Source of the DNA: a virus
Length of the DNA: 6,141 bases
Virus record (IMG/VR): IMGVR_UViG_3300020030_000034
Span: 1-6,141 of that record
Strand: one strand, 5' to 3'
In this document: positions 1,011 through 1,807 of the stretch, in pieces
Numbering within the stretch: the first letter of the stretch is position 1
Layout of the letters: each line of letters opens with the position of its first letter
Notes under the pieces: generated by a model
What the model was told of the DNA's origin: nothing
Databases searched by the model: none
The model's input: the letters and a program-made list of their open reading frames with translations, nothing else
Made by a program: the position numbers and the translations under genes

Positions 1011-1050
1011 AACAAAAAAGAACCCGCAGGAGGGGGGGAATCTCCTGGGG
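1011..1050 (-). terminator. Rho-independent-type terminator (GC stem-loop followed by a T-tract) downstream of the 107-aa ORF
   Basis: The minus strand reads CCCCAGGAG-attcccccc-CTCCTGCGGG followed by TTCTTTTTTGTT. This gives a 9-bp stem with one bulged C and a 9-nt loop, followed directly by the T-run (plus-strand coordinates 1011-1022). It lies 47 nt after the ORF stop at 1097. Confidence 0.5.
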
Positions 1051-1096
1051 CTCAGCGAGTTAAAGGACTCTTCCACCAAGCGGGCGGGTCACTACT

Positions 1097-1420
1097 CTAG
1101 TGCCCTTCCCCTTCTTCTTTCGACGAGCTTTCATTGTGAGTCAAATCAGTGCTAAAAATAAGAATAAGTGTATTATCAAAGAAATCAATCGAAAAGTCGG
1201 GATACGCAATCAGGGCCTCTATAAGGCTAGGAATTTGACAATGATTGATATAAGGCGAAGCGGAGATACTAGAATGTTCTACAAACTCAGGAACGGGAGT
1301 ATGTTCAAGAACATCAAGAGGCAATGTCGAAAATTGTTCATCTTTAATACAGCCTACCTGAACAAAATCGACCTTAAGAGCCGGATTAATACGGCGGAAA
1401 ACGATATGAACCTGTGTCAT
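1097..1420 (-). CDS. Hypothetical protein, 107 aa, acidic, no recognisable motif
   Basis: It is an ATG-initiated ORF on the same strand as all the other genes. Its T-ending codon bias (GTT, CTT, GAT, CCT, ATT) matches VP1. It has an AT-rich leader and lies 23 nt after the preceding ORF. I judge the antisense ORF at 1100..1435 to be a shadow of this one. Confidence 0.55.
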   Translation of the reverse strand: MTQVHIVFRRINPALKVDFVQVGCIKDEQFSTLPLDVLEHTPVPEFVEHSSISASPYINHCQIPSLIEALIAYPDFSIDFFDNTLILIFSTDLTHNESSSKEEGEGH

Positions 1421-1443
1421 AATAATATAATTTAATGTTTTAG

Positions 1444-1749
1444 TTAAAGTTCATTGTAAAAACACTTCCAGGCGTCGGAATGCTTAACCCAGAATTCGTA
1501 ACCCTCAGGAGTTGAATCAAACAGAAAAGCAGCGGAGATAAGAGACTCAGGGCCAAGGCTAGGCGAACAATAGACATATCGGATTAAATCACGCAAACAG
1601 TCTCGAAAGGTTTTCCGAGGCGTAACGGGGAGGCTATAGTTCGCCCTATAGGCGGTAAATATTCCTCGACGGATAAGCCACTCAACGAATGCATATTCTA
1701 CAACATCAATCGCCAGCTTGTCGACTTTGGAACTTTTGCTCTTTTTCAT
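1444..1749 (-). CDS. Hypothetical protein, 101 aa, with a basic N-terminus and an aromatic-rich C-terminus (…FDSTPEGYEFWVKHSDAWKCFYNEL)
   Basis: It is an ATG-initiated ORF on the gene strand. It is preceded by a 72-nt T-rich intergenic spacer that contains a promoter-like motif. I cannot assign a family from memory. Confidence 0.6.
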   Translation of the reverse strand: MKKSKSSKVDKLAIDVVEYAFVEWLIRRGIFTAYRANYSLPVTPRKTFRDCLRDLIRYVYCSPSLGPESLISAAFLFDSTPEGYEFWVKHSDAWKCFYNEL

Positions 1750-1775
1750 AAAAATACGGTTATTGGTTTACAGCG

Positions 1776-1807
1776 CAAATATAACAACAAAAAATCTAAA
1801 ATACAAA
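1776..1807 (-). promoter_or_regulatory. Candidate Bacteroidetes-type promoter (-33 TTTG / -7 TAnnTTTG)
   Basis: The minus strand reads TTTG (1807-1804), then a 20-nt spacer, then TATATTTG (1783-1776). This matches the Bacteroides sigma-AB consensus in both sequence and spacing. It sits in the only long AT-rich intergenic spacer (1750-1821), 27 nt upstream of the ATG at 1749. Confidence 0.4.

Follow-up and report, generated by a model that had tools for sequence, protein, structure and literature searches.

Layout of the locus

The window, meaning the whole stretch of 6,141 nucleotides (nt) analysed here, is IMG/VR virus record IMGVR_UViG_3300020030_000034. It represents a complete microvirus genome, a circle of 6,042 nt whose linear record overlaps itself by 99 nt at the ends, and is listed in IMG/VR with direct terminal repeats. 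The minus strand carries every gene of the genome. Downstream of the VP2 gene, from 1807 to 1011 on this strand, lie a promoter-like site, the open reading frames (ORFs) ORF101 and ORF107, and a terminator-like site. The original prediction described these features as a two-gene accessory cassette, and all of them are present where it placed them, on the minus strand. However, there are not two genes but three: an unannotated gene running from 1134 to 1060 overlaps the end of ORF107 and encodes a small basic peptide like the J/VP8 packaging proteins of other microviruses.

1804 to 1807, minus strand: -33-like TTTG of the promoter-like site, part of the TTTG-N20-TATATTTG match
1776 to 1783, minus strand: -7 box TATATTTG, Bacteroidota sigma-A consensus TAnnTTTG
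1759 to 1771, minus strand: predicted transcription start (G at 1771) and conserved leader GTAAACCAATAAC, placed from the position of the box
1444 to 1749, minus strand: ORF101, a 101-residue predicted helical protein of the 'TPEG-FW' small-domain family, in a variable slot
1097 to 1420, minus strand: ORF107, a 107-residue acidic protein with a predicted alpha/beta fold, part of the lineage core
1060 to 1134, minus strand: unannotated J/VP8-like gene of 24 codons, in the +1 frame relative to ORF107, encoding MKARRKKKGKGTRVVTRPLGGRVL
1020 to 1053, minus strand: GC-rich hairpin of 34 nt, folded as a 12-bp stem with one bulge and a 9-nt loop
1011 to 1019, minus strand: T-tract TTTTTTGTT, starting directly after the stem

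The genome belongs to a 6-kb gut microvirus lineage that is abundant in the faecal viromes of animals and humans. The GenBank entries closest to it come from unclassified faecal Microviridae and are about 70-79% identical in nucleotide sequence across 50-72% of the genome, and the GenBank records of the lineage name VP1, VP2 and VP4 only. Conservation was examined mainly in 80 IMG/VR relatives. These were recruited through ORF107, so that its presence in 80 of 80 is built into the set; ORF101 is present in 79 of them.

A third gene overlapping the end of ORF107

Nucleotide conservation was found to peak at 1057-1131, and the third-position variation of ORF107 collapses in codons 96-106, though the tail of the protein is predicted to be disordered. 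Both are explained by the overlapping J-like gene, which shares 38 nt, in the purine-rich run AAAGAAGAAGGGG, with the last 12 codons and the stop of ORF107 and is conserved in 73 of 78 relatives. In the 40-nt block made up of the ORF107 stop and the next 37 nt, variation was observed at every third base only. Over the part of the gene that lies outside ORF107, the entropies of the three codon positions were 0.10, 0.08 and 0.69 (71 distinct sequences). For the gene, 128 synonymous codon changes were counted versus 27 replacements, and the latter are essentially all conservative, chiefly K/R, V/I and A/S exchanges. The start codon does not vary from ATG, whereas the stop, though fixed in place, may be TAA (39), TGA (36) or TAG (3). 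The segment 1060-1134 is coding and not a non-coding element, and since 1060-1096 belongs to a gene, the non-coding region that follows is shorter than first thought.

The segment had also been considered as a cis-acting element (an origin, a packaging signal or a structure in the 3' untranslated region) in which the basic frame is a coincidence. Such a view draws on its place among the most conserved 30-mers of the genome, on the hairpin-rich non-coding region that adjoins it, on the commonness of chance short ORFs and on the lack of a protein-family match; it is made very improbable by the variation confined to third positions, by the excess of synonymous changes, by the invariant start and the stop held in place across three stop codons, and by the diverged peptides of distant relatives. 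The more specific reading of the conserved 40 nt as a replication origin was rejected on account of the codon periodicity of the overlapping frame. Another possibility is that the basic peptide is not made alone but, through +1 frameshifting on ORF107, as the C-terminus of a fused product. The frames do overlap in a purine-rich run, and the disordered tail of ORF107 appears dispensable for the modelled fold. However, the ATG at 1134 is invariant though the overlapped ORF107 residues vary, and relatives keep an ATG-started ORF of 23-29 codons even where the overlap is reduced to a few bases or absent, which leaves frameshifting a highly unlikely explanation.

A strict filter for small size, at least 28% lysine plus arginine (K+R), at most one acidic residue and a GG motif near the C-terminus was used to search for such genes. 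In a stricter form, it singled out the gene annotated as J, ORF8 or J-like in each of phiX174, Chp2 and phiMH2K and nothing else. Six GenBank relatives gave exactly one ORF each, located at the 3' end of the ORF107 homologue, and with the GG requirement dropped an equivalent ORF was obtained from four more distant relatives, two of which also gave one unrelated ORF. In none of these ten GenBank relatives is the ORF annotated. The peptides of the relatives have 23-29 residues, and the diverged ones keep length, charge and C-terminus.

The peptide of the window has 24 residues, of which 10 are K or R and none is D or E, an isoelectric point (pI) of 12.0 and the C-terminal sequence GGRVL. Its size lies within the range of about 20-45 residues of J/VP8 proteins, and its composition agrees with the description of these proteins as Arg/Lys-rich, free of acidic residues and having a pI of about 12-13 (PMC11281519). 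Compared with phiX174 J, Chp2 ORF8 and the J-like protein of phiMH2K, it is shorter (24 versus 38-44 residues), with a similar K+R content (42% versus 32-43%). Structural conservation of J/VP8 among solved capsids is confined to the last four residues, which are buried in the coat protein (PMC11281519). The window's GGRVL corresponds to GGIRF, GGIRL and GGQQF of the known proteins, with Gly invariant at -4 and a hydrophobic last residue; more generally, J, ORF8 and the phiMH2K protein also have the pattern [G/L]-G-x-x-[L/M/F], in which a single Gly is invariant in 13 of 13 sequences. The position of the gene also corresponds. In the order VP2-(ORF101)-ORF107-J-like-...-Rep, it stands between a post-VP2 gene and Rep, as gokushovirus ORF8 does (VP2-VP3-ORF8-Rep in Chp2, VP2-VP3-VP5-J-Rep in phiMH2K; compare D-J in phiX174). 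The peptide differs from gokushovirus VP8 in its shorter length, in a lineage-specific RVVxRPLGG core and in having no statistical sequence match to it. As no profile method links the sequences, likeness to J/VP8 is claimed here for the working of the peptide alone. It is proposed that the 24-residue peptide works like a J/VP8 packaging protein, in which case it would be present in the virion and bind single-stranded DNA (ssDNA).

The promoter-like site and leader

The spacer between VP2 and ORF101 (1821 to 1750) has 72 nt and a GC content of 24%, against 45% for the genome. It is the sole AT-rich spacer longer than 50 nt, as had been predicted. The match TTTG-N20-TATATTTG at 1807 to 1776 combines both motifs of a Bacteroidota sigma-A promoter at their usual distance (about 19-21 nt) and is the only TTTG-N(17-23)-TANNTTTG match in the genome. 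Among the relatives, T-rich sequence including TTTG is retained at the -33 site in most, and a TAnnTTTG box lies 14-16 nt upstream of the leader core in 66 of 79. The columns of the leader GTAAACCAATAAC are at least 90% conserved, and its core AACCAATAA starts 19 nt before the ORF101 ATG in 79 of 79; the leader occurs once in the genome. Distant relatives keep TAnnTTTG in the spacer after VP2 whatever gene comes next, including MG945141 and PQ006260, which lack ORF101. Start-site mapping in flavobacteria places the sigma-A box TAnnTTTG at -12 to -5 (PMC9723704), and the predicted start is therefore the leader G at 1771, giving a leader of 22 nt up to the ATG, without a Shine-Dalgarno sequence. 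The conserved TTTG-N20-TATATTTG site is accordingly treated below as a predicted promoter.

Across both strands of the whole genome TANNTTTG occurs 2 times, versus 4.7 expected from shuffles. This scarcity may reflect avoidance of stray promoter boxes.

The terminator-like site

A stable GC-rich hairpin directly before a T-tract on the coding strand, as in an intrinsic terminator, was found at 1053 to 1011; a consensus scanner missed the hairpin itself (1053 to 1020) because its loop exceeds 8 nt. A hairpin of about -17 to -27 kcal/mol leading directly into a T-run was found in 62 of 71 relatives, its stems falling into several unrelated sequence classes, and in the alignable class compensatory changes were observed in 5 of 10 consensus stem pairs. 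Termination is therefore predicted at this site, and the punctuation at both ends of the cassette is borne out by the relatives. However, the terminator does not appear to be the cassette's own, as had been suggested. It is the first hairpin and T-run after the whole gene array and would also end read-through from upstream. Since the terminator scanner gave no terminator-like site between VP2 and ORF101, the hairpin and T-tract probably end all transcripts of the array.

The hairpin might instead act mainly as DNA, as part of a complementary-strand origin extending over 886-1053. It adjoins a 211-nt GC-rich region with more covarying hairpins and a three-way junction, ssDNA phages such as G4, phiX174 and M13 prime the complementary strand by such hairpins, and six relatives have extra hairpins in an expanded loop together with a weak T-run. 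Against this, the T-run abuts the stem in most relatives despite unrelated stems, and the hairpin lies on the coding strand directly after the last gene of the array. A T-run abutting a stem is the signature of an intrinsic terminator and is not needed for priming signals. A mainly DNA-level role is for these reasons considered quite unlikely, and termination remains the preferred reading.

Downstream of the terminator-like site, 886-1010 on the minus strand contains modular covarying hairpins, for example CACCGG-TTTA-CCGGT, and a three-way junction (GGCCGA...GACGC-GTA-GCGTC...CAGCC-GTTAA-GGCTG...TCGGCC) that shows compensatory changes among the relatives. Some relatives lack entire hairpin modules that others have.

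ORF107

ORF107 is an acidic protein with a pI of 4.6 (16 D/E versus 5 K/R), as the original prediction had noted. Its 155 homologue clusters are nearly all equal in length and mostly on contigs of about 6 kb. The ratio of nonsynonymous to synonymous substitution rates (dN/dS) relative to the window was 0.26-0.27 for ORF107 and 0.27-0.32 for ORF101, versus 0.11-0.14 for VP1, VP2, Rep, ORF98, ORF100 and ORF66. Both proteins are therefore under purifying selection, about twofold more relaxed than on the other genes, and they are the least conserved proteins among the relatives. That the two ORFs are conserved as coding sequence, which the original prediction had proposed to check, is thereby confirmed.

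In hhalign comparisons, ORF107 homologues were found right before the J-like ORF in five distant relatives (Tortoise microvirus 105, Dulem virus 225, bajarodmic viruses 22 and 1104, and Dipodfec virus 660), in which the ORF107 homologue comes next after VP2 or after the ORF101 slot. ORF107 is thus kept in distant relatives, also in those lacking ORF101, and is a core gene of the lineage. The term accessory, applied earlier to the cassette as a whole, does not fit this gene.

The AlphaFold2 model of ORF107 is a confident compact alpha/beta domain (predicted local distance difference test, pLDDT, 89) with a disordered tail. A Foldseek search against the PDB gave nothing significant; the best hit, GFRP, had an expectation value (E) of 0.08 and a template modelling (TM) score of about 0.4 and was taken as no match. 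In BFVD, only uncharacterised Microviridae proteins were matched (TM 0.56-0.88, some at 12-24% identity). All five small-ORF families of the genome were also compared with VP3, VP5/ORF5, B, C, D and K, and the hhalign probability was below 1% throughout. A profile match of the family labelled A2 to PDB entry 8fje 'E8' (E 1e-4) was rejected, because its score sums four weak repeats with independent E-values of at least 2.4 each; 8fje is a designed repeat protein. PDB profile searches with the families labelled A1, A3 and A7 gave nothing meaningful. Tandem duplications at the 3' end of ORF107 in some loci were discarded as artefacts of joining contigs with terminal repeats.

ORF101 and its slot

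ORF101 has a pI of 8.8, with the basic N-terminus MKKSKSSKVDK and 17% aromatic residues, in agreement with its earlier description as basic at the N-terminus and aromatic-rich. Its 152 homologue clusters are, like those of ORF107, nearly all equal in length and mostly on contigs of about 6 kb. The AlphaFold2 model has five helices (pLDDT 84), and Foldseek gave no fold match in the PDB. Scans of ORF101, ORF107 and their families against Pfam, PHROG and PADLOC gave no match with a named function, the PADLOC defence-system models giving no match to either protein. That neither matches any named microvirus protein also had been anticipated.

A family of small domains was recognised around ORF101. 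All 67 scanned family members match PHROG 10949 (best E 4.9e-5), and for most of them PHROG 16354 and 25460 gave a match as well; these three PHROGs are annotated as of unknown function. The family carries the C-terminal motif aFxWxxTPEGxxFW...W, and its profile an N-terminal FxxFL...N helix. A search of 1.84 billion proteins with the profile gave 92 matches at E up to 1e-3, among them proteins in which the domain is repeated in tandem two to four times and one fusion to a dGTP_diPhyd_N domain within a tailed-phage nucleotide-metabolism module. Where the domain stands alone, the homologues are encoded in long runs of small genes on one strand, alongside YopX and DUF3799, and the C-terminal motif is found in NVP1079O_62 of Vibrio phage 1.079.O. 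When the microvirus ORF101 proteins were aligned by hhalign with homologues outside the close microvirus set, two of which were shown to lie in non-microvirus gene arrays, a probability of 99.5% was obtained (E 4.5e-23, about 77 columns). Judged from these profiles, the homology of the microvirus proteins to single-domain proteins outside the close set is solid. Where context was examined, members of PHROG 10949/16354/25460 belong to gene arrays of double-stranded DNA (dsDNA) phages, whereas ORF101 belongs to an ssDNA microvirus; ORF101 also has an additional basic N-terminal extension and a longer middle segment.

The slot between VP2 and ORF107 varies: PQ007377 and OQ686889 have an ORF101 homologue there, MG945141, PQ006260 and MK765661 have no gene, and PP511490 has an unrelated ORF. 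What is truly accessory at the locus is therefore ORF101, and here the original description stands, ORF101 being absent or replaced in some relatives and belonging to a family that is also found in tailed phages, in their early or accessory regions. A partner-binding, host-directed role is plausible for it.

Function of the unit

The order of promoter-like site, (ORF101), ORF107, J-like gene and terminator-like site parallels two known arrangements. In phiX174, the genes D, E and J between pD and TJ are the most highly expressed (PMC11527146). The pD-D-(E)-J-TJ segment likewise consists of an internal promoter, an acidic gene of about 100-150 residues, an overlapping gene for a Lys/Arg-rich peptide and the first terminator. 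It differs in several respects: phiX174 D and ORF107 have no sequence or predicted-fold similarity, the D/J overlap is TAATG whereas ORF107 and the J-like gene overlap by 38 nt out of frame, and the unit described here has a variable ORF101 in front and a predicted promoter of the Bacteroidota type. In gokushoviruses, VP3 (Pfam Chlamy_scaf) resembles ORF107 in standing after VP2 and before the J-like gene, in evolving fast and in its acidity (pI 4.8 for Chp2 VP3), and differs in length (about 150 versus 107 residues), in having no Pfam or hhalign similarity and in fold, ORF107 being predicted to form a compact alpha/beta domain. The parallel of the layout with phiX174 pD-D-J-TJ and gokushovirus VP2-VP3-ORF8 makes a high-dosage assembly and packaging unit the most likely explanation. 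It is thus considered probable that 1807 to 1011 on the minus strand is a conserved internal transcription unit for high-dosage assembly and packaging, with an accessory gene at its head.

According to this model, transcription from a sigma-A-type promoter downstream of VP2 would begin at about 1771 and give an mRNA whose leader of 22 nt lacks a Shine-Dalgarno sequence. This mRNA would carry the three genes and end at the hairpin (1053 to 1020) and T-tract (1019 to 1011), where read-through transcripts from upstream would also end, so that the three genes would be the most heavily transcribed of the genome. ORF101 would be a dispensable helical protein, probably binding a host or phage partner, and ORF107 an assembly (scaffolding-like) factor needed in stoichiometric amounts. 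The 24-residue peptide would be carried into the capsid together with the ssDNA, whose charge it would neutralise, and would be anchored in the coat protein by its C-terminus, like J/VP8.

The scaffolding-like role of ORF107 is suggested by synteny, charge and expected dosage. Its position beside the J-like gene and its acidity are those of VP3 and D; a need for high copy number and a presence in procapsids would be expected of such a protein. The assignment is tentative, reasonable but somewhat short of probable.

Several observations weigh against the model. ORF107 has no detectable similarity to VP3, B, C, D or VP5 (hhalign below 1%) and no Pfam match, so that it shows no likeness in sequence to the scaffolds VP3 (Chlamy_scaf), B and D. 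Its compact alpha/beta model is unlike internal scaffolding proteins, which are largely extended, and none of the proteins matched in BFVD is named as a scaffold. Another candidate for the internal scaffold, just as acidic, is ORF98, which directly follows VP1; an internal scaffold has likewise been predicted for BMV proviruses (PMC3091885). The J-like peptide matches no Pfam family, no PHROG and, when searched with a lineage profile at E up to 10, no PDB chain, and it has no statistical match to J/VP8 models or solved chains, such short biased peptides being hard for these methods. The TTTG-N20-TATATTTG match is not significant by itself (0.19 expected, with at least one match in 37 of 200 shuffles), and the evidence for the promoter is therefore its conservation among relatives. 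Finally, scans of 185,579 reference prokaryote genomes with ORF107 and ORF101 gave no copy and no prophage, and thus neither evidence of lysogeny nor a host assignment.

The original prediction had instead seen here the natural place for host-interaction, anti-defence or lysogeny-related functions. Taken further, this gives a cassette whose proteins act on the host (takeover, anti-defence or exclusion) and not in assembly. Such a host-acting cassette would fit the fast evolution and low conservation of ORF101 and ORF107, the dispensability of ORF101, the occurrence of its family in small-gene arrays and nucleotide-metabolism modules of tailed phages, the acidity of ORF107, which recalls DNA-mimic inhibitors, and the lack of resemblance of either protein to known structural or scaffolding proteins. 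Yet ORF107 is retained lineage-wide even without ORF101, is physically interlocked with the J-like packaging gene and occupies the scaffolding-gene position of gokushoviruses and phiX174, and neither protein matches a PADLOC defence system. As an account of the whole locus this is judged rather unlikely. The host-interaction reading survives for ORF101 and is conceivable, if less likely, for ORF107; for ORF107 and the J-like part synteny points to assembly and packaging. The related suggestion of lysogeny found no support, since the genome has no integrase and neither gene was found in the reference genomes scanned.

A bolder version of the assembly model can be envisaged, in which ORF107 would be a novel globular scaffold, analogous to D but unrelated to it, and ORF101 a host-directed module swapped between microviruses and tailed phages. 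External scaffolds are not known outside the Bullavirinae, and the present lineage does not belong to that group. This version is regarded as speculative and unlikely to hold in full.

Genome context

The other genes and features of the genome are as follows.

5653 to 3830, minus strand: VP1
Directly 3' of VP1 and before ORF100, minus strand: ORF98
Between ORF98 and VP2, minus strand: ORF100
3195 to 1822, minus strand: VP2
211 nt between ORF107 and ORF66, minus strand: stretch without an ORF above the listing cut-off
885 to 685, minus strand: ORF66
685 across the junction to 5657, minus strand: Rep

ORF66 (685-885) is a basic protein of 66 residues, joined to Rep by TAATG (683-687) and conserved (dN/dS 0.13). 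It has no similarity to VP5/ORF5 or phiX174 C, and the 24-residue peptide is the better J-like candidate of the two. Two of the three most conserved 30-mers of the genome, 3403-3432 and 3482-3511 on the minus strand, lie in the ORF98-ORF100 spacer, with per-column identities of 96% and 98%, respectively, across 68 relatives. The segment 3482-3511 contains ACTTGA, the hexamer spanning the viral-strand nick site of phiX174. As a candidate rolling-circle origin this 30-mer is a lead, nothing more. In relatives L012-L091 identity to the window is mosaic, VP1 falling at either about 67% or about 91% whatever the identity of VP2, ORF101 and ORF107, which suggests frequent recombination of modules within the clade of the window.

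The host is probably a member of the Bacteroidota, judging solely by the promoter type and by leaders without a Shine-Dalgarno sequence. A 17,383-nt ENA scaffold (L005, positions 1-1300) is probably chimeric and not a prophage. It joins 1,174 nt from a close relative, which begin at the end of VP2 and reach about Rep codon 38, to bacterial genes (YbbR, CdaA, ProRS and asparagine synthase); it was judged chimeric because the junction lies inside Rep and 55 unrelated bases precede the phage part.

Significance

What does the locus contribute to the biology of these phages? The J/VP8-like peptide would supply an essential function that had been missing for the lineage, namely packaging. Its gene escapes automated annotation, being only 24 codons long and overlapping with another one. 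What had been taken for a conserved non-coding element is coding sequence, which calls for caution in reading short conserved "spacers" of ssDNA phages as regulatory. The lineage-core ORF107 can now be told apart from the swappable ORF101 slot with its tailed-phage domain. According to the prevailing view, microviruses are genetically isolated from the wider phage gene pool; an exchange of ORF101 with dsDNA tailed phages would, if true, contradict this isolation. The conserved internal promoter-like and terminator-like sites predict which genes would be made most, and the three genes offer concrete targets for the first biochemistry on these uncultured phages.

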